A DNA stretch of 64,000 nucleotides from the NCBI GenBank assembly GCA_977862235.1, contig OZ374562.1, positions 1,736,001-1,800,000 on the forward strand. Reading direction: 5' to 3'. The notes beneath the pieces were generated by a model. That model was not told where the DNA came from, searched no databases, and saw only the letters and a program-made list of their open reading frames with translations. Source of the stretch: Dudresnaya verticillata (lineage: Eukaryota). The translations under genes and the position numbers were made by a program. Within the stretch, counting starts at the first letter, position 1, and each line of letters starts with the position of its first letter. This document shows positions 6,782-64,000 of this stretch, piece after piece.

Positions 6782-7762
6782 TCAGATCTCCACATATGCG
6801 ATGTGTGCGTACATATAGAACTCTTCTGCAGACAGGTTATATTGTGAAAACAGGCGCGAATAATCCTTCTTCGACTGAACAATTGCCCGAGAGGTATGCA
6901 CGGGGTCGTACATAATCGGTTTTTTCAAGCCAGTGAGCGTCTCGTTGACAGCTGGAGGGAATTCATAGTAAAAGGATGTCCTTTCACGCATCTGATCTCC
7001 GAATTTCAAGTGCTCGTCCCAGGTTTGGGGTTTTCTAGTTCTCCCAAAATTATCAAGAACTCTGCCTGGCCATATATCCTTTCGGCGCCGCTCACATATC
7101 CACTTAAAACTATAGTTATCGCCTTCGTTGTATCCAAAGTTGTCATCAATAATGAACCGACGGAAACCCTTCGGTGCTGCCTCGAGGAATACACGACGGA
7201 AGCCGGACTGGTGGTCGTCTAGAAAGACGAGGGTCTCAGCAGGATCGATTCCCTTCGCGTGCCAATCCACTTCGGCGATATCAACAAAGTCATCCATGTT
7301 AAAGTACTCGACGCCTGGTAGTTTGGCGTCCGGAGGCCTCGGATCGAATGTAAATATCTTTACGCCAGGAAGGGTTTTGTACATGAGCCAGGTTGAGTGC
7401 CCACGGAAGGCGCTCGACTCGATAATAAACTTGGGTGGAGGGTGCATATGTCGGAGCATGTACCACAGTGCAAAGGAATGGTGCAGTTGCATTCCTCCTT
7501 TGTTGTTTTCGATAGTCCTTTCAGAATACAAGCGCAAGAATTCGGGTAGAGCTGCTCTTATATGATTCAAGCAAGCCCATGGGGGGCGGCGCGGCTTACC
7601 AATTGCTTGGCAGTCCCCACCGTCCGGAGGGGACTTCTCACAAGTGTTTGAACGTGTTACAGAAATCGGGTCCATTAACAGCCTTTGATAAATTAAGAAG
7701 GAAGCGGGTAAGAGAATTATTGCCACAATCGCACGCCGTGAATAAAAGCATTTCCCTGTCAT
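6782..7762 (-). CDS. Type II membrane (Golgi-like) protein with putative class I SAM-methyltransferase-like domain
   Basis: Intact 326-aa ORF; N-terminal TM (AIVAIILLPASFLIY); motifs FIIESSAFRGHSTW, FTFDP, LVFLDDHQ, IIDDN resemble an uncharacterised plant/algal MTase-fold family. Confidence 0.75.
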   Translation of the reverse strand: MTGKCFYSRRAIVAIILLPASFLIYQRLLMDPISVTRSNTCEKSPPDGGDCQAIGKPRRPPWACLNHIRAALPEFLRLYSERTIENNKGGMQLHHSFALWYMLRHMHPPPKFIIESSAFRGHSTWLMYKTLPGVKIFTFDPRPPDAKLPGVEYFNMDDFVDIAEVDWHAKGIDPAETLVFLDDHQSGFRRVFLEAAPKGFRRFIIDDNFGYNEGDNYSFKWICERRRKDIWPGRVLDNFGRTRKPQTWDEHLKFGDQMRERTSFYYEFPPAVNETLTGLKKPIMYDPVHTSRAIVQSKKDYSRLFSQYNLSAEEFYMYAHIAYVEI

Positions 7763-14992: not shown

Positions 14993-17400
14993 TTAGTGGG
15001 TGGTTGCGTCTTGAGACAAGTTCATCGCTTGCAACGCCATGCGTCGTGCTTGCACGGTTAACGTCTTCGTTATCGGACGCGATTCATTGTTCTCATTCGG
15101 CGGAGCCGTAGCGACGTGTTCCAAACGGGTGCGAACCCCTGGGGTATTGTCGTCGTTGGAGACGGATTGCGAAGCGCGGTCGTCGGGGTCGGCGGCGAAG
15201 GGCAAAAGCTCTGCCAACCCACGACTGCGTGACGTTGCGGTTATACGCTCCTGCGGATCTCCCGCAGTATGCGAAGTCTCTGCGTCACCCTCTGGGCTCG
15301 CTGGTGGCGTGTCGGGGGTAGTCGTCCCTTCGTCTTGTGACGTGGGGGCGACTGCGTCCTGCACCGCGGGCGGGCCTGGTGGGACGATGAGTGGAGGGGC
15401 CGCCTGACCCGGTGGGGCCGGCGCCCAGACCACGCGGTCTCGGGACAAACGTTCCCGCTCGTCACGTCCCTTGTCGACGGTTACTGTCTCTTTATCAACG
15501 TGAGTTACCCGATATGGTCCGTCCGCCACTGGCGCCAGCTTATGCTTACGCTCTGCGCGATCCGTGCTCCCGCCTCGGGCAAAGTATTCCTTGCGTACGA
15601 ATACGAAGTCGCTTACGGCGATTTTTTCCTTCGATTTCCTCAATCGGGTATCAAAGTTTCGTTTGTAACGTGCTTGAGTTGTCTCTAACGACGCTTTAGC
15701 GGTTCCCATCAGTGCGGCCAGCCAGGTTCGCCATTTGGTGTAGTATTGCCCCGCGGTGGGTACGCTTTCGAGCGACGGTTCCGCTTCAAGCGACAGTGGA
15801 CGTGGTGGCTTGGACAGCACCAATTCAAACGGAGCGAGATGCGTAGACGAATGCAACTGTGTGTTGTATGCGAACGTCAAGGCATCCGTGAACAGGTCCC
15901 AGTCTCTCGAATGATCCGCAACGTAGTGACGCAGCGAGGCCAGGATGGTTCGATTGAATCGTTCTACCTGGCCATTGCATTGCGGATGGTACGTCGTGGT
16001 GAAGAGATTCTCCACTCCCAAAAGACGGCAGATATCCTGAAACCGATTAGCCACAAACTGTGGTCCGTTGTCGGACAAACGTTTCTTCAGAGGGCCGTAC
16101 ACGAAGACCCAATGTCGTACAAACACCTTAGCGATTTCCAATGCCGTAATACTACACAGTGGGACCGTCCGGACCAGCTTCGAGAAGCGTTCCACAATGA
16201 CGAGTAGGAACTTGTTTCCTCGCTTCGTGCGTATGAGTTCGCCCAGGATGTCGATCGATACGAATTCGAGAGGCTCGGTTGCCGGGAATAACTTCAATTG
16301 CTTGGTGTTCTTTCGCAGCAATACGCGATTCTTAGCGCAGGTTACGCAGTTGCGGACGGTCGCATAGCAGTCCACTGGCATCGATGGCCAATAGTATTCA
16401 CGTCGAAGCGTATGATACAACTTACGCCCCCATGGGTGCCCTGCTAACTTGGCGTGGTGCCGGAGGTGGAGTAAGCGAGCGCGTAACGCGGAGGGTACGA
16501 CCACTTGTGGACGGACTTCTACTGTTCGAACCAACAGGCCCTGTTCATCCGTTGCGAACGGTAGGATGATCCCGTCATCCAGACGTTTCCTGAAATCGTT
16601 ACAGTATTTGTCATCGCCTTGGGCGTGTACCAACTCTTCATGCGTCACTTGACGAAGGAGTACCTCATTCGCCGGTGGCATGTTGTTGATCAACACTTGG
16701 TCGAACTCTTCGAACTCTCGTTCGGCGAAGTCGACCTCGCCTTCGGCGTCAGACAGATCGTCTTGTGACGTTTGATGGCCATCTTCGACGTAGCTTCCGT
16801 GGTAGCATGGTACATCATCGTCAATGGGCTCGACGGTTTCTCCCTTCGTCTGTAGACGAGAAAGGGCATCTGCCTGAGTATTCAGGTACCCCTTTTTGTA
16901 CTTCATGACAAAGTCGAACTCGGAAAGGCGAAGGCGCCACCGCATTAACCGTCCAGAGGGGTCGCTGATTGCCATCAGCCACCTCAATGACGAATAGTCC
17001 GTATGGACTGTGAACGACTCCATCTGGAGGTAAGGTCGCAGCGTCATGACGGACCATACTACTGCGAGGCACTCCTTTTCGGAGACCGAGTAGTTACGCT
17101 CTGGAGCGGTGAGCGAGCGGGACCAGAAGCCGAGTGGCTTACGCTCCCCGTCGGGCTGCGTTTGAAATAGAGCACAGCCGACCTGATACTCGCTTGCGTC
17201 ACAATCGACAGAATAGAGGAGACCCTGCTGTGGTAGCGCCAGTATAGGCGGATGAGTCACGGCCTCGACGAGCGTACTGAACGCTTTGGCTTGTGTCTCA
17301 TCAAACTGTTGTAACCGGAAGTCCTGTGACGACTCTATCTGCCGGTTGGTGTCATCGGTAACTAACTTCGGGCCCTCCTTCCGTGTCAGCACCCGAGGCC
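14993..17400 (-). pseudogene. C1 pol remnant: RNase H + integrase
   Basis: VDCDASEYQVG, FWSRSL, EKECLAVVW, ADALSRL, HAKLAGH..CVTC, VSIDILG, SDNGPQF, YHPQCNGQVER, GPY. Confidence 0.93.
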
Positions 17401-21068: not shown

Positions 21069-24000
21069 TGATAAATGTTGAGGAGTTGGTTCTCTAGTTT
21101 TGTTTGTCTATCTCTCTCATCTCTACAATGCGTGAGGCAATTTATACAAATCTTGTCACTAAAGTATCGTCAAGTTTTTAAGACTAAAATGGGAACTCCT
21201 TCAGTTGGGTACTCACGAATTCGGTTGTTGTCAAATTCGTGTACATCCCGATTAAGGACGCACCTCCGTTGTTACTTATTTTGACATTCCCCCTCATCAT
21301 CAATTGTCAGTATCGCGGAGTCCCATGGCTTGAACAAAATAGATGTGCTTCTTTGAGTTGAACGACTTGGTCATGATATCGGCCACTACTTCGTTGGTTG
21401 GAATGTACGTCAGTTTGATAGTCCCATTCTGAACATGTTCGTGAAGATAATGAGACTTGACGTCGATGTGTTGGAACGTTCGTTGCATACGTCATTATTT
21501 GCTAGCTCGAGGGCACCTTGGTTGTCACCACGGATAAGTACCTGAATGCTACTAGACTGGGCAGTGCCAGACTCGGATAAATCCTGTGAGGCCGGATTGC
21601 TTCCCGAACCGTATATGACATTTCAACATACTCAGATTCCACAGTAGACTGTGCTACCGCCTCCTGCTTCTTACTACGCCAGGATAGTGCTCCACCTGAG
21701 CTTTGGAACATAAATCAACTCACTGATTTGCGTTTAATGCGGTCAGCTGCGAAATCAGAATCTGTATTGCCAAAACTATATACTTCTTGTTTGTTGCTGC
21801 TGCGGTTGTACACGATTCTCAGGCGTTTAATCTTTTTGAGATAACGTAGAAAATGCTTCGCAGCTTGCTAATGAATCATCAGCGTGTTATGCATGAATCG
21901 GGAAAGGAAAGATGTATCAAAAACAATATCCGGGCGAGTTGTGTTTGCCAAATATAGCAAGGCGCCAATCAGCTCGCGATACGGAACAAACTGCATACGG
22001 CGATACTCCCCTTCGTTACGAGACCCCAGAATGGATGGAGAGTCTAATATCATCCCCGGGGGATCGGGACGTCGGCTGTACGGCATTGCGACATTCCAAA
22101 CTTCTCAATCAGCTGTCCAATCATTAATTCGCTGTAAATCTTCAGCGTCCCAAGCTTAAGGTTACGTTCGATACGAATTCCCAGAAATTTCGTCGCGTCT
22201 GCCTATACTCGAATACATACCTGTGCGGCTATACGGTCTGCGAAGGTGCGAAGTTCGCATAGAGATGGTCCTGCGAGTAGCATATCGTCCACATAGACGA
22301 GTAAGTAGATGTATTTGTTCCGGATGCGGAGAATGTAGAAACTTGAATCAGATTTCGATTTCGTAAATTCTAAGGCAGTGAGGAATCTATTCACGACACG
22401 GTGCCATGCTCATGAGGCTTGTTTCAGTCCGTAGAGGGCTTTGAGTAGACGATAGACCCATTGGGATCGACTAGAGTCCACAAAGCCTTCCGGCTGTTCC
22501 ATGTAGATTATTTCTTCAAGTCCACCATTCAGGAAGGCTGCCTTTACATCAAGTTTCAGAAGTGCCAAATATTCATCCGTAGCGAGAGTCAGTATGAAGC
22601 GGACTGTGGAGTACTTGGCAACGGGGGAAATGTCTCGGTGAAGTCAATTCCATTTTGTTGAGTGAAACCTTTTGCGACCAAACGTGCGCGACGACGAGGC
22701 AGACGTCCCTCGGCATCTAACTTGTTCATATATACCCATTTTCTCTTGACTGCCTTGGCATTGGAGGGCTGCCGTTCTAGAAACCAGGCCTTATTATGAT
22801 TGATTAATCAGTTTCATTCTGCATTGCTTGGTTCCATTCTGGTGAAAAGGGTCCGCTGATGGCCTCTCGATAAGTAGTTCGAACGGTGGTGTCTTCATTG
22901 CCAAGACGTACATTCAAGGCAATGGAGGTGAGATCAGCATTGCGAGAGGGGGCCTGGATGGCAGTCCTGAGCGGGTGACATTGGGAAAACGGGTAAGCGT
23001 GTTGGGGTCACGATCTGCGTTTGGGCCGGTAGTGGACGTATCTTGCGCATCATGGAATGAATCACTGTCCTGTTCCGATGAATCGTCAGAATCTGTTCTA
23101 TTGTCGGAGTCAGTCTCGGTGTCAGAACCACTAATTGGGTGAGAATCAGTAATGGTACCAGGGTCTGAATCTGAATCGATTTGTTGCCTGTAGTTACCAG
23201 TCAGGTCGAAATAAGTACTGGTAGAGTTTTGAAGCCCTAAAGAAATATCATGGTAAGTAGCTGGAGCATGGCGATGCGTGGTCTCATCGAAAGTTGCATC
23301 GTGAGACGTTATGACTTTGTTCTCCGCTCGTATGTAGACTTTGTAGCTGGTGCCCTTGTCGTACCCGAAAAGCACTCCAGTCTTGGCACGCGGAGCGAAC
23401 TTACCAGAACGTCGTTGTGTCGGGATGTGTACGTAGGAAATGGCTTCGAACTTGCCAAAGTTGGAAACGTCGGGGCGCTCTCCAACAATGACCTCATACG
23501 TCGTCTTGTCAGGGTCCGAGCAGGCAGACGTGAACAACTGGTTTCGAATGTAGGTGGCGGTGTTCATGGCCTCAGGCCACAAACTTTGATACACCTTGAT
23601 GTGAGCTAATTTTTGCATAAGTGTTCTCGCTATGTCCATGAGGGTGCAGTTGAGACGTTCTGCTTTCCCATTTGATTCCGGTGAATACGGATCACTGCGT
23701 TCATGGATGATATCCTTGTCAGCGTGACATTTCTTGAAGGCAGTAGACAGAAATCCCTTGCTATTGTCAGTTCTAAGGCGAAGGACGCAAATGCGCGGGA
23801 TGTTTCCCAGAAAGATTGCTTCCAGGTCTAGAATCATATGCTTGACGGATGAAAAGTTTCCTTCTTTGTAATCATGAAGCGAACGAGTGATAATGCACTG
23901 GAGTCATCGTAGAGCGGAATGCAGTAGGGTGTACCATTGAAAGAAGGGTCACCAACGGGTCCGATGATATCAACGTGTACTAGGTCCAACGGATTCACTT

Positions 24001-25619
24001 TTTGAGATGTGGATACAGTATGAGAATCTCTTGTAGACTTTCCTTTCTTGCATGACCTGCTGGTCGAAAGTGCAGCGCAGTTCTTGATTCCAATCTCCTT
24101 AACAGGAGGGATAGTTTTCTCGATTACAGCCTTGCTCGCATATCCAAGACGGGCATTTCATAGGTCTTCTGCATCCGGTTTTGTTAACAAAGCGGACTCG
24201 TCTTCAAGGCGCATATCGACTTCATAAAGACCATCATGTCGCTCGATACCCTTAGGAGAAATGTAAGCAGTACCAGGACGTGTGACAAATAATATCCCGG
24301 TTCCATCGCGGCTGCTGTCAAAAGTTGTGCGGAACCCCGCGCGTCGCAGCTTGTAACAGAAATGAGGTTGCACATCAGATCTGTAATGAATAAGGTGTCC
24401 TGCATGCGGACAGATTGTTTCAATCCATCAACCTGCACAAAACATTTTACGGTTCCGAGACCATACACTCTAGCCTTCTTTCCCTCTCCAACAGATACGG
24501 AGGTATCATTTTTTTCAGGGTTCAGTTGTTCGAAAAACGTTTTGTTGTTACACATGTTTAATGAGGCACCCAAATCTATAAACCACCTGTCCTTGAGGCT
24601 AATACTTGACCCGGAGCACAATGTGAGGCACGTAGCGATGAACGTGACATAATTAGACCCTGTGGAGTTAGGTGGGTCATCTGTGTCTTGGTGTTTGTTA
24701 CGAGCGTGATGGAAGCCGGTGAGGTAGAATCCTCCTCAAGGTGAGGAGGCAGCGACATCTCATGGGTGATGAGCATCCCAATTGTAACTTCACGTCCGTG
24801 TTTCATAGCGCGTATGACCTGTACCGGAGACTTGCAATCTTCCGTCAATCCGCGAAGAAGTGCTTGTTTCTTCTCGCTGTTGGAAACAATATGGCCGACG
24901 CCGGACAATTTGCTTTCAAGTTCCCGAAGGCGGTTGATGTACTTGATTACTTTCTCAGTAGGATTCACTTTCAATGCTTGGTATTGTTCGAGATAGGTAT
25001 CAACGGACGCTTCAGAGATAGCTTGATATGTCTTCTGCAGCTGGTTCCGGACTTCGGTTGGGTCACGGAGATCAATGATATCAGCATTACAGGAGTCATC
25101 AATGGTGAGAAGGATGATACTCAATGCTGAGTAACGACGGCGGAGATACTTGACTTGCTCGGTAGGGAGCTCTGGTACAGTTTCAGTACCATTGTCGATG
25201 TCCCAGATGCCCTTGCCATGGAGGACCAATTCGATTTTGCGCCACCAGCGGTAGCAATTTGTAGAGTTTAGACGCTCAATGTGGTAACGGCTGGTATCCA
25301 CGGTGTCCAGGGGTTCTGTCATCGTGGTACTGACGGCCGTTGTTACAGTGTAGCGGAGACGAAAAACAACATAGCCGTGTAGCGTGTAGTTGCCCATAAC
25401 CTGATAAATGTTGAGGGGTTGGTTCTGTAGTTTTGTTTTTCTATCTCTCTCAACTCTACAATGCCTGAGGCAATTTATGCTGTTATTTCCACGGAAGTAT
25501 CTCCAATGTTTTAAGAATAAAATGGGAACTCCTTCATTTGGGTACTTACGAATTCAGTTGTTGTTACATTCGTGTACATCCCGATTGAGGGCGTACCTCC
25601 TTTGTTACTTACTTTGATA
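21069..25619 (-). mobile_element. Ty1/copia LTR retrotransposon, full length but degenerate
   Basis: 218-bp LTRs 21069-21286 and 25402-25619; 5-bp TSD AGCTT (21064-21068 / 25620-25624); PBS GGTTATGGGC; PPT TGAGGGGGAA; gag-PR-IN-RT-RH order. Confidence 0.95.
21300..25397 (-). pseudogene. Copia gag-pol (fragmented)
   Basis: gag (ERLNSTN), protease WFIDLGAS, integrase LRTDN..SPESNGKAER, RT LLVYVDDML, RNase H SWRSKKQ..HIDVKSH. Confidence 0.92.
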
Positions 25620-37349: not shown

Positions 37350-40300
37350 AGTGTGAGCGCTATCGAGATACAACTATAAAGTTGTCGCTTCCGTTGGGAC
37401 CTCTGTTGACAATATGACTCAAGTACTTTCAGTTCTGGACACGGGCGCAGGCCCCAATCTCATTAGAGCTGACGCGCTCTCTTTGAACGACCGGAAGAAG
37501 GTTTCCTCGACCCAGTCGATCGTCAACCTCACCTCGGCATCAAGCCACCGCTTACCAACATTAGGAATGATCTCACTCGCCGTCAGGATTGGAATCTACA
37601 CGGTCCGTCAACCCTTCGTCGTGGTTTCGGCGCTAGCCGTCGATATGATTCTAGGATACACCTATATCGATAGCCACGTTGAACAACTTCGAGTTCGTAA
37701 GCAACACGTAGTCTTACGTGACGGTTCGGTACATCCCATTCTACGACGACGATGCGGAATCCCGAGAGCCACACGCTCTGGCGAAACCATGGAGGTCCCT
37801 CCACTAACTACTTCGCGCCTCGTACGAGTTTCTCAAACAACTAACTTACAGCCCGGTTCTGAAACCTGGGTCGCGGTATCCTGCACCGCTAACGGCACAC
37901 ACTTATTGGATTCCTTCCAACGTCTCTACGACCGTCAGCAAGTGGTCGTCACGAATGGAATCGTCAAGATACAAGAGAACGTTCTCTTCCGTGTTAAGAT
38001 CGCTAACTTCTCTCCCCGCGTGCAACGGTTAACCAAGAACCAAGTCATTGGTCGCGCCGTTCCCGCTCCTACGGCCACGCCGGTTTATACTCTTTCCATC
38101 GCCGATGTCCACGCCAATACGGACCCGAAGCCACAGTACTTGAGTCCTCCTGCCGATACATCGTTCGATGCAGAGGGGCAGGGCTAGCTGCTGCTCTTGG
38201 CGCGGCCAACTCCAAAGTAGACGTCAAAACCGCCACTGAGAACACAGTCGACGAATGGGAATTAGAACACCTATGCCCGTCTGACAGACGCCGCGTTCAC
38301 AAAATGTTGCGTCCTTTCGCCGACATGTGGAACGGGAAATTAGGGACCATCAAGGTCACGGAGCATCGCATTGAGCTCACAGAAGGTTCCAAACCTGTAT
38401 TCGCACAACCCTATCGTTCAGGACCGAAAGCGCGACAAGCGGAGCAGGAAGAGGTCGATGAGATGCCAAAGGAAGGGGTCATAGAGCCAGCACGCTCTGA
38501 ATTCGCAAGTCCTGTAGTACTGGTTAAGAATCGTGACGGATACCTCCGGTTCTGTGTCGATTACAGGAAACTGAACGCGATTACCATCAAGGATTCTTAT
38601 CCTATACCGCGCATGGATGAGTGCTTGGACTCGTTGGGCGACGCCCAGTATTTCACCACCCTCGATTGCAATTCGGGCTACTGGAAAATATCAGTTGCGG
38701 CTGAAGATAAGCCCAAGACAGCGTTCACCTGTCATGCTGGTTGCTTTCAGTTCTGTCGAATGCCATTCGGATTGTGCAACGCACCTGCGACGTTTCAACG
38801 AACGGTTGACATCCTATTGTCGGGATACGGATGGAAATCCTGTCTCGTCTATTTGGGTGACATCATAGTCTTTTCCAAGAGTGTCGACGAACACATAGGC
38901 CACATTCAAGAGATACTCTCTATATTGAAGCAAGCAGGCGTATCGCTTCAGCTCAAGAAATATAATTTCTTTACAAAGAGTGTGGAATACCTCGGGCATT
39001 TGATCCGACCAGGGCTGCTAGAGGTGGCTACCAAAAACACCCAAGCTATCGAAGGTTTCAAGGAGCCTACGACTCAGACACAACTAAGGTCGTTTATTGG
39101 ATTGTGTAACTTCTATAGACGCTTCGTACCGAATTTCGTTAGGGTCGCGTCTCCTCTTAATAGACTTCTACAGAAGGATGTTGGGTTCAACTTACCCCCG
39201 TTTGATGAACGGCAACGCTAAGCCTTAGCCCTGTCGAAGAAGGCCCTCATAGCGCCAGCGATCCTCCGACTCCCTAAGGAAGATAGACCTCTCTCGGTAG
39301 ATACCGACGCGTGTGATTATCAGATAGGGTGTGCCCTTATGCAGATGGAGCCAGGAGGCACACGCCACCCGATCGGTTTCTGAAGCCGAGGCCTGACCCA
39401 GGCTGAACGGAATTATTCCGTTGGAGAAAAGGAGTGTCTCGCTGTAGTCTGGGCCACACAAAGGCTCAGACCGTATTTGGAAAGGTCGCATTTTGACCTC
39501 TATACCGACCACCAAGCGCTCAAGTGGATGATGAGTATGACTGAAGCATCAGGTCGCCTAGCGCGCTGGCGCTTGCGACTCTTGGAGTACGACTTCACGG
39601 TTCAATACCGTAAGGGAAATAAGAATCAGATAACGGATGCCGTCTCGCGACTGTCCACTTATGGATTCACCAGTTGGGAACCGGATCTAGAGATCCCTTG
39701 CTTCCTTATCGCCGACAGCGAGCGCGAGGGCTTTCCCAATCGTCCTTCCGAAGGAAAAGCGAGAGCCGACACCGAGCCGCGACCTTTGGAGGTTTGGGAA
39801 GTCGAACCCGAGGACCAATCAGCCGAGTTTGAATTCGAGGATGAGCAGCTGATAGCCACTGTGGTTGAAAAGTAAGTGGACGACAAGAGTCTATCTCTGA
39901 TTACGGTGGAAGAAATACTTCGCACGCAATTGACAGATCCATTCTGCAAGGGTTTAAGCTTGCCATCGAAGCTGGAAAGCCAGGCTGTTACCTCGAAGAC
40001 GAAAGGGGACTTTTAGTCCGACCGTCTTACATCGACGAAACCTTGCAGGTGGTGATGCCTCGGGTCCTTCAAGAACGGGTTCTACATCTGGCGCACTATC
40101 CCGAGATGGCAGGCCATCCCGGTGGCACCAGAATGTATCATAACTTGCGCCGACAGGTCTACTGGCCTGCTATGGCTCTCGCAGTATACGCGACCGTTCG
40201 AAATTGTGTCAAATGCGCTCGGGAACGAGTCCAATTACGACAACATGCTTCGCATATGAAGCTGTTCCCGGCTACGATGCCGTTAGAGTTCGTGGGGATT

Positions 40301-41712
40301 GACATCCTAGGACCGCTACCCCGATCGAGCAAGGGTAACGAGTACGTTCTCGTAATAACCGATCGCTTCTCAAAGCTCACCAGGGCTGTCCCATTGAAAA
40401 CGGTGACGGCTCATACCGTGGCAAGAGCGTTCTGCGAACATTGGGTATACACTTACGGACCTCCCCGCTATGCGTTGTCGGACAACGGCCCGCAGTTCGC
40501 ATCAAAGCTCTTTATAGCCGTCTGTGGCATACTTCGGATCAGGAATCTGTTCACGTCTACTTACCATCCACAGATGAATGGACAGACCGAGAGGTTTAAT
40601 AGAACCTTGTTGACTGGGCTGACACACTTCATCTCCGATAACCAGAAGGATTGGGATGAATTCACGTCGGCTTTGACGTACGCGTAAAACACGACCGTTC
40701 ACCGCGCGACGGGTCTCGCGCCCGTTCATCTGGGTTTATCTAACCCTCCAACGTCCATTATAATGGAAAAAGCCGAGATAGTAGACGTTGACAACGTTCC
40801 AGCGACTAACGTGAAAAAAGGCTGATTACCCGGCTCGAGAAGCCGGTGGATACAGCGTTACCACGCCTGCGGATGGCCCAACGACGATATGAAGTCAACT
40901 TCAACAATTTTATGCGCCTGACTAACCAGAACGTTCGCACAGACCAATGGGCATTTCTCGAGAGAGAAACGAAGATGAAAGACGCCAAAGGCGTGGCTCG
41001 AGACGGGAAGTTGTTTCCGAAAGCCGTAGGCCCCTTAAAGGTGCTCGAACGAGGAACACACACCATCGTTCTACAAAAAGCTGGCGAAAAAGAGTTGGTC
41101 TCTTTGGATCGCGTAACACTGGCCCCTTCACCAAACGATGAGCTCGGCGCTCTTGGGCAAGAGCCCCCTATCGTGGGATCTGGGCCTGACGACGCGGAAC
41201 CAGTAGACCCACCCTTGAGGGCAACGACCCCAAATAACATCTATGTTGAAAGAGCGCCGGCTCAGCCCGACGGTGAGTTGTTAGAAACGATGGTCGAGGC
41301 CGCAGATGCGCCGACTGTCTCGCCTCCACGGCGAGAGACCGATAATATCGATAACGACGCTGGCCCGGTTTCCATAACCACACCCGCTCGTGAGGTTCTC
41401 ATACCGCCTGGATCCGGCGATCGCGCGGCAATGGTATCCAAGGGCAATAGCCCCCCTCGGCCTGATGACGAGCCAGCTGCTACAGAAGCCGACGAGACGG
41501 CTCCCCACGGTAAGTTCTCACGCTTCAAGAAAGCTCCCCCTCGGGAGTATGTTTATGACAAGTTAGTCGGCTACGACGCAGAGTCGGAAATGTACAAGGT
41601 AAGCTGGTACCAGTGCCCTGCCTCGCAGGATACGTGGGAACCACGACGGCATCTCCCGGATAACTTAGTCAAGCGGTATCACCGTAAGAAGGGGATCCCC
41701 CTTCCCGCCTAA
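37350..41712 (+). pseudogene. C2 pol: protease, RT, RNase H, integrase, chromodomain
   Basis: VLDTGAG; FCVDYRKLN, MPFGLCNAPATFQ, YLGDII (YLDD mutated); EKECLAVVW; GHPGG..CVKC, SDNGPQF; EYVYDKL..YKVSWYQC..DTWEP. Confidence 0.95.
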
Positions 41713-47169: not shown

Positions 47170-48015
47170 CTAGTATGTTTTCTTCCCAGTGACAACATCT
47201 GCCCATGTCCTATGGCTGGTTTGCGTCGCGGAACTCAAAAAAGGCTCAATTTGCCTTGCACTAAAGGGCCCCTCCGCAATGAGACCAGACGCATTGTCCA
47301 TAGGCCGGTTTTCGTCATTATCGTCGTCAGACGCAGAAGACCATTTCATCGATTTGGACTCGAAGTTGGATAGAGACGGCACATTTCCGGAAGCGATCAC
47401 TTTTTCTTCCATCTCAACATCTACTTCTTTCGGCTCCGGAACTGGAGCTTCGGTGACCTCCGACACGGCATCTGCAGATCCATCCGTGTGAACCAGGGAA
47501 TCGTTCTCACATGTTTTAGTGTTAGAGTGGACAGCATTGTTTGAAGGAATCGGCGCAGTCACAAATGGTGAAACCTGATAAAAGCACTTGCCTTCTTCGG
47601 GAGCAGTCCAAGTCATGGAATCCTGTACGCTAAATTGCATATACGGTCCCAAATGTGCATGAAAGTACATCTCAGATACCGGAAAAGGAACCTGACCGCA
47701 TATAGGCCTCGGAATCTGTGTGGGCAAGGACGGGCGCCAAGCCGGCCTGATACGGTTCATGAACAGGTTAACCTGCACAATGGGTGGGTACCAGTACAGA
47801 AGAAGAGCGACAGGGACATCGTTGCTAACGCCCATCTGGGCCATTCGCGGGAAACGGAGGATATCTGTCAAAGATACCCATCCAAATTCGTCACACAGAC
47901 TGTGCATGAAGAAGTCAATCGGGAAGTTCTCCTGGCTCATGTAGTACTCAATCTGGAAAAGAATAGCTCGCTCCAGAGGGGCAAGGGCTGCACGCGGGAT
48001 GAGGTTGCTGTTCAT
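47170..48015 (-). CDS. La-motif (LAM) RNA-binding protein, LARP-like
   Basis: ILFQIEYYMSQENFPIDFFM...GWVSLTDILRFPRM matches the La domain consensus; disordered C-terminus ending TWADVVTGKK. Confidence 0.8.
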   Translation of the reverse strand: MNSNLIPRAALAPLERAILFQIEYYMSQENFPIDFFMHSLCDEFGWVSLTDILRFPRMAQMGVSNDVPVALLLYWYPPIVQVNLFMNRIRPAWRPSLPTQIPRPICGQVPFPVSEMYFHAHLGPYMQFSVQDSMTWTAPEEGKCFYQVSPFVTAPIPSNNAVHSNTKTCENDSLVHTDGSADAVSEVTEAPVPEPKEVDVEMEEKVIASGNVPSLSNFESKSMKWSSASDDDNDENRPMDNASGLIAEGPFSARQIEPFLSSATQTSHRTWADVVTGKKTY

Positions 48016-55593: not shown

Positions 55594-58061
55594 TCAGCAC
55601 CCTTTCCCAATTTCCGCCACATGCCGCGCCACGCCAAACCCAAACCTCGCAAACGTCCGCATGTAGCGCCGCGCGATGCGGCACCGGTTCGCGTCGAACG
55701 CCGCGCCGTCGAACATCGCGCCGCCCACCACGCGCGCCACGTCGTCCGCGCCGCGCGCCACGCCCGCGCCATGCCCCAGCACGAACGGCACGCGCATGGC
55801 CCGCGCCAGCTCCAGCGTGCGGTGGTCGCGCGCCACCACCACCGTCGGCACGGCCTCGCTCACGCTCAACATGCCGCCCATCGCCCGCGCCCCGATCGAC
55901 ACGTCCATCCCCCGCACGCTTTCCCGCCACGAGTCCACGTTCTGGAAGTACCGCACGCGCTCGAACGCCACGCCGCTGCTTCGCAGCGCCTCGAAATCGG
56001 AAGACGTTTGCGCGTATACGTAGCTTTCGGGGTACTTTTCTAGCAGCTGCTTGCACAGGCCTGAAATAGACGGCGCCATGTTGATCGCAACTTTCAGCCT
56101 CTTGTTCCCAATCTGAGTGCGTAGCCATCTGTACCGTGCTTCCAGTTTCCTGCCGAGTTGAACATCTCGTGAAAGCATCAGAGATGGGCAGCCGGTCACC
56201 ACACCATGTGAATAACCAGCCAGTTCGGCAGCCTTCATAGAGAATTCACCTCGGAAAAGCATTGGGTACCCCTTGGCTTGCATCTTTCGCAGAACACTCA
56301 GTCCGGCTTTTGAAAACATGTGTTCAGACGGTTTTCGCAGAGCTTTCATCCCAGCGCTGCCAGGGCTTAGAGCAAACGACTCCTGCACCCCAATTCCTAC
56401 CAATAAGGGAGCAACTCTCTCGCTCAGAGCCTCAAGTTCGTAGTCGAATTCGCCTCTTCGGGCGGGGTTGAAAAAGCTTGAAGTCGGTCTGTAGTCGACA
56501 AGATACTTTGCCTCTTTCGATGATCTCAGTCTCTGCATACAGGCAGACCGCGAAGCGTTACAGGTAGATGAGTGCCTGAAACTCGGCAGCTCCCTATATG
56601 CAGCGTATCGCCAGACAGAATGACCGGTATTGTATGTAGTTTTTTCTATGGCCTCGCTGTAGTCACTATAATTTCTTACTCTGTACGTCGGGTTCAAACG
56701 CATCTCACCATACATGTGAAACCGATCCCACACGCACACGAGATACTCCTGATCCATGTTATCGCCATTCACGAGTTTCTCTGCTGCGGATCCGCTTTGT
56801 ATCGTCGGAGCTGCACCAATGTTTCCCACTGCAGCAGTCCTATTCTTTCTTGCGTCCACAGCGTCCACGTTGAGAGCAATTAGGGAAGAGTCGTGTGCTA
56901 CGCTGGTGGAAGAATCCGAAAGAGATTCCTTGACAGAATCAATTGATTCTGCAACGTATCCGACAAGATTGTCGACCTGCAAGACACCGCCCCTGCAGAA
57001 GATGGCCGTAACGACTACTGTTGCTATAGCGCCAACCATGATATGGTTGGGTCGCCTCTTCGGCTTTGGACGGAACAAGGCAATGAGCGAGCTTGTGATC
57101 TTTGCGCCATACTTGGTGCCGCCAAAGACGTAGAGCGGGAAGCCGACAAAAGTGCACAGGAGCCCCAACAGATGCCTTGAAGTGAGGTTTTCATGGAGGA
57201 CAGCAAAGGAAAGGAGAATTCCCGTAAAGCGCTTCATGGTGTTTGCCAGCGAATGGGTGAGAGCATCGAGCTTTCCCAGGATGGCAATGCTCGCAAACTG
57301 ATACGAGTTGAAGAGCAGGCCGTTCCAGAGCATGACAAACGGGGACGAGAAGGCGCTACCGGTAATGCAAAACTTGACAAACACGGCCAGCATGCATGGC
57401 GGGAGGGCCGCGACGTGCATGGCATAGAAGCGAAGCTCAGTGGACTGGTGCACAGCAGCCGACTCGCGGCGCTGGTACAGCTTGAGCATGATGTTGCGCG
57501 TGGGGAAGGCGAGGTTGGCCAGGACGATGGGCGACACGGTGAGGGCGGTGAGCTTGCGAGCCGAGAAGACCAGCACGCCCACGAGAACCGCGGCCACGCC
57601 CGCCATGGACAGCACCGGGGTGTGCTGGCGCAGCACGACGCGCTTCAGAGCAATCGTGGCCACCGGCTCGGTCAGCTTCCACACCAGCGTGGACGACGCG
57701 CCGATGGCGCGGTACGACGCGTTGGTCAGCAGCGTGCCGGCCAGGTGCAGCAGCCCGGCCGCCGTGAGCTCTGCCGCCGGCAGCGCGTCGCGGAGCGTGC
57801 GCAACAGCGGCGGCGGCGGCGGCGCGGATTTGCGCGCGCGCGCGGACGCGGACGCGGACGCGGATGTGGTGATGACGTGCGACAGCACGGACAGAAGCAG
57901 GCCCACCACGAGCTGCACCGCGGTCAGGTCCACGAAGAACGGCGCGGGGTGCGCGGCCAGCACGCGGTGCGCGTCGATGGCGAAGGCGTTGTTGGCGCCC
58001 CACCACACGAAGACCTGCGCTGCGAGGACGAGCGCGGCGCGCGAGCGCGGGCGCGACGACG

Positions 58062-58099
<38 letters not shown>

Positions 58100-58155
58100 A
58101 TTGTTGGCGCTGCTGCTGGGGTGCGCGACGGGCGCGGCGGCGCGGGGCCGGGCAT
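55594..58155 (-). CDS. Fusion of a triose-phosphate/PEP-translocator-family transporter and a polysaccharide pyruvyltransferase-family domain
   Basis: 853-aa uninterrupted ORF. The N-half has about 10 TMs with TLVWKLTEP and HSLANTMKR. After an extra TM, the C-half has LVGIGVQ, FRGEFS, VVTGCPS, VSIGAR..G, ARDHRTLELA. Confidence 0.8.
58062..58099. repeat. (GGC)n microsatellite encoding poly-Pro
   Basis: Visible trinucleotide run in the N-terminus of the fusion ORF. Confidence 0.9.
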
Positions 58156-58599: not shown

Positions 58600-60021
58600 T
58601 CAACTACAATCACCCCCCTCCTCCTTCTCCGCGCGCCCCTCCCCCCCCGTCGTCAAGAACTGCCCCCTCTCCAGCTCCACCACCACGCTCTCCGAAGACC
58701 CCTTCGTCCACGACGCCCGAAACCCCCCCTCCGCCGCGCGCACCGTCCGCACCTCAACCCTCGTCCGCCGCGTCGTCTCCCCCAGCCCGTTGACCTGCCG
58801 GTAGCAACTCGACAGCGCGCGGTGCGCATCGTCCAGAAAGTCCGGCATACGTCTGCACACCACCGTCACCACCCCGTTCCACACGCCCACTACGCACAGC
58901 AACGCCGCCACGCCCACGCCCCAGTAGAACGCCCACACGGCCACGCTCGCGTACGTCTTGGGCACCAGCAGGTCGCGCCGGCACGTCGTCCCGGTCACCG
59001 ACGCCCAGTGCAGCCCCAGCACAAACCCGCACTCGCGCAGCAGCCGCGCGTCGTCAAACCCCGACGCGTACAGCCGCACGCGCAGCAGCTCCTGCAGCGT
59101 GTCCGGCCACGGCGTCGCGTCGGAGAACCGCACCTCGCCCACGCGCACGCTCATGCGGTACGTCCCGGCCCGCAGCCGCCGGTGCGCGCGCGTGTCGATC
59201 ACGGCGATTCGGTACGCTACGTGGTCTTGGAAGAACACCCCGACCATCGCGTCCGCGTCCTGCGACTCCCACAGCTGCCGCTTGGACGCCTTCTTCTTGG
59301 CCACGGAGAACGTCGCGTTCACCTTTTGGAAGAACGACCCCGTGCGCCGGTACCCGTCCTCTTCCTCCCACTGCTTGATCAAGTCCACGCCGTTATCCTC
59401 AAACTTCCATAGCTTGTTCCGAGAGTCGATAAACACGTCCATCGTCTTGATCTCGTCGCGCACTATCATGATGCGCGTCCCATTGTTGAAATCGTTGGCG
59501 TAGATCGACTCTTCCGCAGACACGTCCAGCACGCGCGGCACATTCGACATCTCCCCCACATCCACACCGTGCTTGACAGCATATTCGTACGTCTGGATAA
59601 TCGACCGCTCCGAGCCGTACGTTCTGACAAACTGGTCCTCCTTGTTCCTGCAAAACGAGTCTTGAAAGACCTTGCGGTAGCCCACCACGCGCTGGTCCGT
59701 GATTGTGGAGTAGTCAATCTGCGACTGCAACGTGGGCGCCGTCACGAATGACAGCGCAAACAGCACGGTGCTGACCACGGAGAGCACGCGGCCGGATAAG
59801 GTCCACTGCGAGTTGCGGTCGCGCGCAATGCGCACCTGCTCGCGCACGCCCGCGCCCTGGCGCATGACATTGTCCAGATAGCCGTGGCGGTGCAGCGCGC
59901 GGCGGCGCTCGTTGCGCGCGTTGCGCCGCATGAGAAAGCGGATGGCCATGTGCACCAGCTTGGACACGACCTCGATCACGGTGGCGAGGTAGTTGGCGCG
60001 GATGTTGAGCAGGATGGCCAT
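58600..60021 (-). CDS. Hypothetical membrane protein (two or three TM segments flanking a large loop)
   Basis: 473-aa ORF with G/C-ending codons; hydrophobic VLSVVSTVLFALSFV and VAVWAFYWGVGVAALLCVVGVW; no recognised family. Confidence 0.65.
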   Translation of the reverse strand: MAILLNIRANYLATVIEVVSKLVHMAIRFLMRRNARNERRRALHRHGYLDNVMRQGAGVREQVRIARDRNSQWTLSGRVLSVVSTVLFALSFVTAPTLQSQIDYSTITDQRVVGYRKVFQDSFCRNKEDQFVRTYGSERSIIQTYEYAVKHGVDVGEMSNVPRVLDVSAEESIYANDFNNGTRIMIVRDEIKTMDVFIDSRNKLWKFEDNGVDLIKQWEEEDGYRRTGSFFQKVNATFSVAKKKASKRQLWESQDADAMVGVFFQDHVAYRIAVIDTRAHRRLRAGTYRMSVRVGEVRFSDATPWPDTLQELLRVRLYASGFDDARLLRECGFVLGLHWASVTGTTCRRDLLVPKTYASVAVWAFYWGVGVAALLCVVGVWNGVVTVVCRRMPDFLDDAHRALSSCYRQVNGLGETTRRTRVEVRTVRAAEGGFRASWTKGSSESVVVELERGQFLTTGGEGRAEKEEGGDCS

Positions 60022-62789: not shown

Positions 62790-64000
62790 TCAAAGCATTC
62801 CCCTGTCCCTGAATCTCTCTACGATCGACGCAAAATGGAAAAAAGAACGCAGCAAAAGCAGCTCGGATGAGTTAGCTTCTGCCACGGCAACACTTGCACC
62901 TCTCAAAGCCCATAACACGGGCAGAAAACCAACTCGCTACGTACCGAGCATCGTCTCGTTCCCTTCAACGCCGCCGCTGTGGTAGTAAATAAGATCCTCC
63001 CCTTCGCTGCAAAGGCGCCCCTCCTCCAGCGCAAGCATGCCTTCCTCCCATGCCTTGGGGGCATACACAAGGTCAAAGACGAAGTCTTCCGCGGCTCGGC
63101 ACATCTCAGTCCATATAGCCAGCTTGTCCCTTCTGACATCGGCAAATTTGCCTCGCAACCTCGGTCGAAGCACAGACGGGAGGGCAGCGGTGCCTATGCC
63201 ATCCGTATCTGCGGATAAGCGGGCCAATCTTCGCATCTGCCGCACGAGGTAGCGCTCATCACCCGACACAGGCACGGCAACGACAGTAGCAACATCACGC
63301 AAATGCTTGGCGAGAAAGTATGCAGTGGTGCCCGTGCCAGCGGCGAGCAAGACGACGGGGCGCTTCGAGGCGAGACGGCGCTGTTGGCGCAGATCATCAA
63401 TCTGCTCGCGCAGCTCAGCAGCCAGCACTGCAATGCCTGGCTCAGCAAGCGGGAAGGCACCGCCCTGCGGGACGAAGAGGGCGTTGGCAGCGTCCAGATC
63501 GGGCAGGTGTTCTGCGGCCGCGGCGCGCGCAGAGGACTCGGCGACGTGTGGCATGGTGTCACTGAAGGCGGCGGCGTATTCTACAGAGGGAAGCTGCACG
63601 TGACGCATGCCGTTTTGCAGGGCGGTTGCGAAGTTGCCGCGCTCAGGAATGTGCGGCGGGAGCGGGCGCGAGAGGTAGACAAACGGCAGGCGGCGCAGGG
63701 CGGCTACGGCGGACAGCGCGGCCATGGCGTTCGACTGCGTGCCGCCGAGCGAGAGCACGTACGAGTGCGGGAGCGGCGCGGGCGGGAGCAGGGCGTGGAA
63801 CTTGCGCAGCTTGCTGGCGTGTAGGCCGGCGTGGTGCAGGACATCGTCGCGCTTGACCAGCACCGTGCGGGCGCGGAAGGTCAGCGCGGTCAGAGGCGTT
63901 GCCGGGAGCGACGGGAGCGCCGGCGCGGGCGGGCGCTGCGACGCGCAGGTTGGGGAGGTGCGGTGGCGGGGGGGAGGGCGGGCGCGGGCGCGGGCGCGGG
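62790..64000 (-). CDS. PLP-dependent D-cysteine desulfhydrase / ACC deaminase-family protein; 5' end likely outside the window; predicted intron 62819-62944
   Basis: VKRDD..SKLRKF, SLGGTQSNAM, VPQGG, AAGTGTT, FDLVYAPK, YYHSGG. A GT...GCTAAC...TAG intron yields the C-terminus GNETMLERFRDRGML*. Confidence 0.88.

Follow-up and report, generated by a model that had tools for sequence, protein, structure and literature searches.

Can one polypeptide both import phosphoenolpyruvate (PEP) into the secretory pathway and use it there to pyruvylate a glycan? This question is raised by an open reading frame (ORF) of the red alga Dudresnaya verticillata, which lies in a 64,000-nucleotide stretch of contig OZ374562.1 (assembly GCA_977862235.1, positions 1,736,001 to 1,800,000 of the forward strand; hereafter the window) and joins a transporter of the TPT family to a domain resembling polysaccharide pyruvyltransferases. 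In a preliminary description of the window, the protein was proposed as a self-supplying pyruvylation module and as a candidate for the pyruvylation of agar or carrageenan. We find that the self-supplying design fits the family of fusion proteins to which this ORF belongs, but as the galactan pyruvyltransferase of the alga, the window gene itself makes a weak candidate. The explanation that we prefer, with belief and doubt about evenly balanced, is that the window protein is a Golgi PEP/phosphate exchanger with an attached pyruvyltransferase domain that is folded but probably dead or weak.

A carrier and a pyruvyltransferase fold in one chain

The ORF comprises 2562 nucleotides and encodes 853 amino acids with zero internal stops. 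No in-frame ATG was found between the upstream stop and the start of the ORF, and homologues align end to end with the product without frame breaks. The possibility of two genes read as one was rejected because homologues are fused in transcript-derived proteins, and the single polypeptide that had been described is hence borne out for the family.

In the N-terminal half, Pfam TPT (PF03151) matches aa 43-342 with E = 5.9e-23 and 82.1 bits against a curated cut-off of 30, and the predicted model shows ten long helices in aa 36-345, namely the DMT fold with ten transmembrane segments (TM1 to TM10). The nearest solved relative by profile comparison is GsTPT2 (5y78, E = 4.5e-34), which is also the top match in Foldseek (TMt 0.81), whereas SLC35B1 reached only 3.5e-13; a weak Pfam UAA match (E = 0.003) was also noticed. 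By profile and by fold, the carrier is thus nearest to phosphate translocators and not to nucleotide-sugar carriers, and its cargo appears to be a phosphorylated small molecule. The substrate-binding motifs K(xxEP) and NxxKR, which had been read at first sight, are indeed present as K160-LTEP and N305-TM-K308-R309. In GsTPT2, phosphate is bound by K204, Y339, K362 and R363, mutants of these residues lose transport, and the mechanism is a strict 1:1 exchange (bioRxiv 10.1101/169169). All four ligands are kept in the window carrier (K160, Y285, K308 and R309), as read from an alignment that, with a chain offset of 89, places 8/8 named residues on the correct letter.

A plastid translocator was considered and rejected, given the lack of a transit peptide and the presence of a diplonemid member in the fusion family. 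No transit peptide was seen by inspection of the alignment in the relatives P0002 and P0003, the former of which starts 4 residues before TM1. The N-terminal tail of the window protein (aa 1-37), which is absent from both relatives and has a second ATG at aa 20, is by inspection not a Ser/Thr-rich plastid transit peptide. When five relatives' carriers were scanned with TIGR00817 (the window carrier was outside that scan), they scored 33-71 bits against a cut-off of 317.9.

The C-terminal half is confidently predicted to have the GT-B pyruvyltransferase fold, so that the pyruvyltransferase-like domain of the preliminary description stands as a fold. When modelled alone with AlphaFold, the enzyme domain reached a mean predicted local distance difference test score (pLDDT) of 92.1 and a predicted template-modelling score (pTM) of 0.92. 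A VIA-align fold search against 48161 chains gave WbbZ (6x1l) as the top match (Z 13.8, root-mean-square deviation (rmsd) 3.4, 213 aligned), and WbbZ is a proven pyruvyltransferase (PMC10629545). Pvg1p (5ax7) came fifth (Z 12.0, rmsd 4.5, 252 aligned, 12% identity), tied with generic GT-B folds, and the pyruvyltransferase match is ahead of the remaining GT-B folds by about 1 Z. A feature search of the ESM Atlas with the enzyme domain returned PF04230 clusters at 0.94. Pfam PS_pyruv_trans (PF04230) itself matches aa 634-778 with E = 1.1e-3 and 19.4 bits, or 21.5 bits with the enzyme domain alone, in both cases under the cut-off of 25.3; a Pfam scan for both domains on the one ORF, as had been suggested, thus succeeds for the carrier and falls short for the enzyme. 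Close relatives do pass, and PF04230 is found at E<=1e-3 in 73/73 members of an alignment of relatives (A4). With the score of the window domain below threshold, therefore, the C-terminal assignment is carried by the relatives. Neither 5ax7 nor 6x1l was reached when the PDB was searched by sequence with the enzyme domain or with relatives, Foldseek gave for this half only generic GT-B folds among the matches listed, and the CsaB equivalog score was 12 bits against a cut-off of 213.

Between the two domains, the basic linker, the additional membrane helix and the Ser-rich stem that had been reported are all confirmed (R362-R368, I372-C387 and aa 388-468, respectively); the stem is about 30 aa longer than that of P0002 and P0003. 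The eleventh helix is helical in the model at pLDDT of about 51-56, with five Lys/Arg residues in the preceding 15 residues and zero in the following 15. After five proteins lacking a real carrier domain had been set aside, 44 of 48 fused proteins showed a clear hydrophobic window of 19 residues at most 45 residues after TM10; in the other four, the pick was TM10 itself in two, distant in one and below 1.5 in one. At least two Lys/Arg residues directly precede the extra helix in 42 of these 44, a count made without a chance control. The positive-inside rule hence predicts a cytosolic linker and a luminal enzyme domain, the same arrangement as in the type-II protein Pvg1p (PMC10435577). This topology would be that of a Golgi protein; the fusion in a plastid-less diplonemid (see below) and the lack of a transit peptide in P0002 and P0003 were counted for such a non-plastid, Golgi-type placement. 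The AlphaFold model of the full-length protein (mean pLDDT 83.8, pTM 0.59) is that of two well-folded domains without a fixed relative position and gives no sign of direct channelling from carrier to enzyme. A weak Pfam match to Glyco_hyd_65N_2 over the stem (E = 0.004) was rejected as below the cut-off.

Seven short carriers of the same clade (P0051, P0055, P0057, P0058, P0059, P0064 and P0066; 312-380 aa) end after the eleventh helix and may be either fission products or truncated gene calls. Also, the cluster of P0102 mixes members of 323 aa and 516 aa with those of 849 aa.

Altered motifs and fast evolution of the enzyme half

What the preliminary description did not mention is that three pyruvyltransferase motifs are altered in the window copy. 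Known family motifs are NxGD, RxxxS/T and a His (PMC10629545): namely, NxGD contains D106 in Pvg1p and is N29-x-G31-D32 in WbbZ (PMC4872226, PMC10629545), the Arg of RxxxS/T is R217 in Pvg1p, R121 in WbbZ and R148 in CsaB (PMC10629545), and the R-x-H motif corresponds to R337/H339 in Pvg1p, R306/H308 in CsaB and H226 in WbbZ (PMC10435577, PMC10629545). Pvg1p D106A is almost inactive (PMC4872226), and CsaB H308A and H308R are inactive, while H308S and H308K are partly active (PMC10435577).

We compared the motifs in 140 aligned domains, in which the column totals vary (123-136). The subfamily has NxGN or NxGD in 120/123 (N in 106, D in 14), R-G in 131/136 and the His of R-I-H in 129/134. In the window copy, NxG[N/D] is replaced with NTGH, PxAN with PTSS and RIH with RAM, and only RGEFS is intact. 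His at position 512 occurs in 1/123 sequences, which is the window copy itself, and M759 stands where the His of R-x-H is expected, with R757 being kept. A frameshift or a single-base error behind RAM was rejected, because the alignment is free of gaps and the codons CGG GCG ATG are several base changes away from any His codon. Furthermore, the window domain departs from the family at 6 of 36 columns conserved at 85% or more, whereas 103/130 domains depart at 0-2; five of the six departures fall inside the NxG[N/D], PxAN and RIH motifs. These sequence changes suggest that catalysis is lost or weakened in the window copy.

The rate of evolution differs between the two halves. When both halves were placed in trees of one set of 11 taxa, the window protein had a terminal branch of 0.36 in the carrier tree and of 1.17 in the enzyme tree, a ratio of 3.2, while the ratio is 0.6-1.4 in the other ten taxa. 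Relative-rate tests reached p<0.05 in 20/24 triplets for the enzyme and in 1/24 for the carrier, the triplets being non-independent. The closest relative, P0008, has intact motifs and shares 65.8% identity in the carrier and 43.8% in the enzyme, below the 46-61% found among the enzyme domains of the four sisters themselves. Of 92 enzyme positions invariant among the sisters, 73 are kept and 19 differ, spread along the whole domain. By these comparisons, the erosion appears specific to the enzyme half and recent.

A similar state is seen elsewhere in the family: P0056, P0062, P0068 and P0104 keep K-Y-K-R in the carrier and have an enzyme domain that is far more decayed and barely recognisable (profile comparison probability of 88% and 50% in the two tested). 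Their sequences point to an older lineage with the same end state as the window copy.

The fusion family, known systems and the neighbourhood of the gene

Word-indexed searches, which are insensitive, gave 3, 1 (among shorter proteins) and 6 matches, the first three, obtained with the C-terminal region, being two further fusions and one stand-alone type-II protein. When 1.84 billion representatives were searched exhaustively with a profile, 3067 matched at E<=0.001, and the family was drawn from the best 150 of the 3067. By domain hidden Markov models (HMMs), 41 of 155 collected proteins have both domains, 98 just the enzyme and 16 just the carrier, some of the single-domain proteins being fragments; Pfam found both domains in 31/59 selected proteins. 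Among 24 proteins looked up, five fusions have a named source: Agarophyton chilense, Gracilaria changii, Lacrimia lanifica, an MMETSP transcript and Amoeba proteus. The A. chilense fusion is represented by NCBI CAN8074326.1 and a transcript ORF marked complete, and that of G. changii by a Trinity transcript, EP00178_P013003. Given these transcript-derived relatives, the fused form exists at the transcript level and is not confined to red algae, and the architecture by itself therefore does not point to galactans. The diplonemid L. lanifica is plastid-less.

The nearest named relatives of the window protein are those of A. chilense (P0009; 35% in alignment A2) and G. changii (P0013; 34%), which belong to the same carrier clade, as would suit a red-seaweed host; in both CAN8074326.1 and EP00178_P013003, the carrier and enzyme sites are intact. 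The candidacy for agar pyruvylation passes from the window copy, with its eroded motifs, to intact relatives in agar-producing seaweeds. We surveyed both sites in 50 proteins, 13 of which are incomplete; among the remaining 37 fusions, both sites are kept in 27, the carrier site is changed in six, the enzyme site in three (the window copy included) and both in one, and K-Y-K-R is kept in 30. Distances in the carrier and enzyme trees of 40 fusions are correlated (Spearman 0.56, with 0/2000 permutations as high), the pattern that joint inheritance of the two halves in most cases would produce; the trees are unrooted, have no unfused reference carriers and give no count of independent fusion events. 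In A. proteus, P0130 pairs a K-Y-K-R carrier with another pyruvyltransferase subtype (Pfam E = 9.3e-10; no match to the domain HMM), which suggests at least one separate carrier-pyruvyltransferase pairing. Of 227 pattern matches in metagenome contigs, none was confirmed.

Several members of the family are unusual. P0054, P0096 and P0102 form a fusion clade with R-Y-S-R/K for K-Y-K-R and an intact enzyme, and P0054 (1387 aa) has two tandem pyruvyltransferase domains. The fusion carriers of P0079 and P0110 score >200 bits on Pfam TPT, compared with 28-90 bits for the red-algal ones, and retain a 'THxxKSLEP' segment like that of plastid translocators, a possible link to the origin of the carrier.

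No published description of a transporter-pyruvyltransferase fusion was found in the literature searched, largely open-access papers, and in the passages concerned, two papers on red algae refer to pyruvyltransferases only as genes that are annotated or to be expected (PMC5402284, PMC5970526). The fusion architecture is already in public sequence, unnamed. The two published quantitative PCR primers for the G. changii 'polysaccharide pyruvyltransferase' GC_3116 translate into neither P0013 nor any close relative, apart from one 5-residue chance match in P0065, and thus do not identify this unigene as the fusion; they may lie in untranslated regions.

The closest parallel is in fission yeast: Schizosaccharomyces pombe Pvg1p is a type-II anchored Golgi pyruvyltransferase fed by the Golgi PEP transporters Pet1p and Pet2p (PMC4872226, PMC10435577). 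The yeast system and the fusion family would have in common a type-II GT-B pyruvyltransferase dependent on imported PEP; the components are separate genes in yeast but one chain here, and Pvg1p has NxGD where the fusion subfamily has mostly NxGN and the window copy has NTGH along with RAM. The NxGD, RxxxS/T and His motifs of WbbZ (6X1L) and CsaB (PF04230) are also found in intact fusion members, while the window copy keeps RxxxS/T only. Unlike the fusions, WbbZ from Klebsiella and CsaB from Paenibacillus are bacterial, cytoplasmic and without a transporter. Plastid phosphate translocators (GsTPT2, 5Y78; TPT/PPT/GPT/XPT) share the 10-TM fold and the four phosphate ligands with the window carrier, which differs in having 20% identity to GsTPT2, no transit peptide, Thr at the position of H185, an extra eleventh helix and the C-terminal enzyme. 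As an analogy of design only, O-acetyltransferases of the CASD1/Cas1p type link a multi-pass membrane domain to a luminal domain that modifies glycans, all within a single chain, and occur as separate proteins in other lineages; their folds and donor (acetyl-CoA) are unrelated.

The features of the ORF are collected in Table 1. Its third-position GC content is 0.88-0.98 in the first 250 and the last 100 codons and 0.40-0.58 in codons 401-700, a gradient that does not track the domain boundary.

Table 1. Features of the fusion ORF, by position in the window
Feature	Position	Strand	Basis
Whole ORF, TPT-family transporter fused to pyruvyltransferase-fold domain	55594..58155	-	ORF, Pfam and homologue alignment
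Pro-rich N-terminal tail, aa 1-37	58045..58155	-	pLDDT <50 for aa 1-19
10-TM TPT/SLC35-type transporter domain, aa 43-342	57130..58029	-	Pfam PF03151, profile, Foldseek
K160 (GsTPT2 K204), phosphate-binding by alignment	57676..57678	-	Alignment to GsTPT2
F217 (GsTPT2 F263); Asn in plastid PEP translocator	57505..57507	-	Alignment to GsTPT2
Y285 (GsTPT2 Y339), phosphate-binding by alignment	57301..57303	-	Alignment to GsTPT2
K308-R309 (GsTPT2 K362-R363), phosphate-binding by alignment	57229..57234	-	Alignment to GsTPT2
Basic linker RPKPKRR, aa 362-368, predicted cytosolic	57052..57072	-	Positive-inside rule
Eleventh membrane helix, aa 372-387, predicted type-II anchor of enzyme domain	56995..57042	-	Hydropathy 1.97
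Ser-rich flexible stem, aa 388-468	56752..56994	-	pLDDT <50 for aa 407-457
GT-B pyruvyltransferase-fold domain, aa 469-853, folded, active site eroded	55597..56751	-	Pfam, ESM Atlas, AlphaFold, fold search, motifs
N509-T-G-H512, NxG[D/N] motif with His last	56620..56631	-	Family alignment (N 106, D 14, H 1 of 123)
S559-S560, replacing family A-N	56476..56481	-	Family alignment (A, N in 113 and 115 of 129)
R635-G-E-F-S639, RxxxS/T motif, intact	56239..56253	-	Family alignment
R757-A758-M759, replacing family R-I-H	55879..55887	-	Family alignment (R 130, I 119, H 129 of 134)

Retrotransposon remnants make up most of the window, together with a few genes that seem to lack introns. A 473-aa ORF (58600-60021, minus strand) lies immediately upstream of the fusion ORF, 445 bases from its start and in the same orientation; it has hydrophobic stretches near both ends and no credible Pfam match. 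Another ORF (62937-64000, minus strand) runs off the end of the window and gave nothing significant in Pfam; by eye, we take it to resemble a pyridoxal phosphate-dependent 1-aminocyclopropane-1-carboxylate deaminase or D-cysteine desulfhydrase. A 326-aa ORF (6782-7762, minus strand) has a membrane anchor at its N-terminus, lacks a Pfam match and resembles a type-II enzyme of the secretory pathway, at a guess perhaps a methyltransferase-like glycan modifier, and a 281-aa ORF (47170-48015, minus strand) has a La domain at aa 18-63 (E = 2.1e-12). Fragmented long terminal repeat retrotransposon genes were found at 14993-17047 (minus; integrase and RNase H), 22914-25397 (minus; a copia-type SH3/integrase piece) and 37414-41712 (plus; reverse transcriptase).

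What the window protein may do

In intact members of the family, the carrier would import cytosolic PEP into the lumen 1:1 against phosphate, the eleventh helix would hold the enzyme there, the enzyme would add a pyruvate ketal to a glycan sugar, and the phosphate released would exit via the same carrier as the counter-substrate. The PEP cargo is assigned by association, because the partner domain uses PEP, Pet1p and Pet2p feed Pvg1p in S. pombe (PMC6801904, PMC4872226), 27 of the 37 fusions keep both sites and P0130 repeats the pairing. The self-supplying design hence fits the family, with its transcript-level fusions, conserved eleventh helix, phosphate-translocator-type carrier and predicted fold, and not the window copy as an active enzyme. 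In the window copy, the conserved carrier is likely active, and the enzyme half would have kept its fold while losing the PEP-binding His and changing the acceptor-side Asp/Asn; the carrier would then feed PEP to other pyruvyltransferases, either intact fusions or stand-alone type-II relatives.

Several points weigh against this exchanger explanation. It assumes an intact paralogue in the same organism. In the enzyme domain, R635, R757, D777, R779 and E782 are kept, and the partial activity of CsaB H308S and H308K means that loss of the His need not be fatal. The equivalence to Pvg1p, WbbZ and CsaB rests on the pattern and order of motifs and not on a residue-level alignment, the results on Pvg1p mutants transfer imperfectly since the subfamily mostly has NxGN and not NxGD, and the direct domain-by-domain contrast of rates is significant (Fisher test) in only 6/24 triplets. 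As for the carrier, F217 corresponds to GsTPT2 F263, at which the plastid PEP translocator has Asn and Phe was modelled as clashing with PEP; GsTPT2 itself binds PEP about tenfold more weakly than 3-phosphoglycerate (3-PGA) (Ki of 8.3 mM vs 0.6 mM), and its H185 binds the carboxylate of 3-PGA (bioRxiv 10.1101/169169). The PPT-type Asn is found in 0/64 rows, Phe being present in most close relatives and Leu, Ile, Met or Tyr in distant ones. The position of H185 is Thr in the window carrier, and the pocket is thus not TPT-like either.

Other explanations were weighed. That the window protein is a fully working self-supplying pyruvyltransferase on cell-wall galactan, tolerating its substitutions, seems unlikely to us: the kept R635 and R757 match the proposed PEP ligands, the fold is confidently predicted in an intact ORF, and 73/92 sister-invariant positions are retained along with the tolerance seen in CsaB, but three motifs are changed together at columns conserved in 106-129 of 123-134 relatives, and the threefold longer branch is in the enzyme half alone. 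[quoted passage not shown] Some other GT-B enzymes are known to have a His base where the first helix begins, and the gain of a His in the N-terminal motif with the loss of one in the C-terminal motif, the clustering of five of the six changes in cleft motifs and a fast evolution compatible also with positive selection would all suit this idea; we nonetheless regard it as rather improbable, since no conserved subfamily shares the state of His512 and the 19 changes of sister-invariant positions are domain-wide, which looks like relaxed constraint.

It is also rather improbable that a different phosphorylated solute (3-PGA, triose phosphate or phosphate alone) or a nucleotide sugar is what the carrier transports, with the link to PEP being incidental here. 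This would explain the TPT-type Phe at F217, the weak UAA match and the six fusions with a changed carrier site and an intact enzyme, but not the retention of K-Y-K-R in 30/37 fusions, the far lower scores of nucleotide-sugar carriers or the repeated pairing with a PEP-consuming enzyme without another obvious purpose. Very improbable, finally, is a protein without any current role, either as a duplicate in early decay or through assembly errors in the altered codons; the window is rich in retrotransposon remains and the exact protein was found in no collection, whereas 853 codons are free of stops and frameshifts, the carrier evolves no faster than in relatives, and each of the altered codons takes several substitutions to reach and sits in a gap-free alignment. 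Reaching beyond the single gene, we may imagine that red seaweeds pyruvylate agar and carrageenan by phosphate-recycling one-chain PEP importer/pyruvyltransferases, which split repeatedly, giving on the one side transporter-only fusions with a dead enzyme domain (the window gene and, in an independent case, P0056/P0062/P0068/P0104) and on the other stand-alone type-II enzymes, with the dead domain serving as a docking site to recruit active enzymes to the PEP source; we put this picture forward as speculation that is unlikely to hold.

The assembly of red-algal galactans takes place in the Golgi, and in some groups, among them Gracilaria, these polymers bear pyruvate ketals; such ketals are well documented on agarans and carrageenans, but very little is known from experiment about the biosynthetic enzymes of the algae (PMC7511586). 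Galactan, as agar or carrageenan, would be the acceptor for the family, although it may instead be a glycoprotein glycan, and the fusion family supplies named candidates for agar decoration, namely A. chilense CAN8074326.1 and G. changii EP00178_P013003. In yeast, a single intact fusion gene should take the place of Pvg1p and of the Pet carriers alike, which might provide a one-gene tool for glycan pyruvylation, and the family would give carriers of the phosphate-translocator type a non-plastid job. The window copy is the wrong one to assay as an enzyme, but together with its intact sister P0008 it makes a natural pair for asking which residues matter. The window thus adds to the family a red-algal branch with named intact candidates, plus a case in which the carrier is kept and the enzyme appears eroded.

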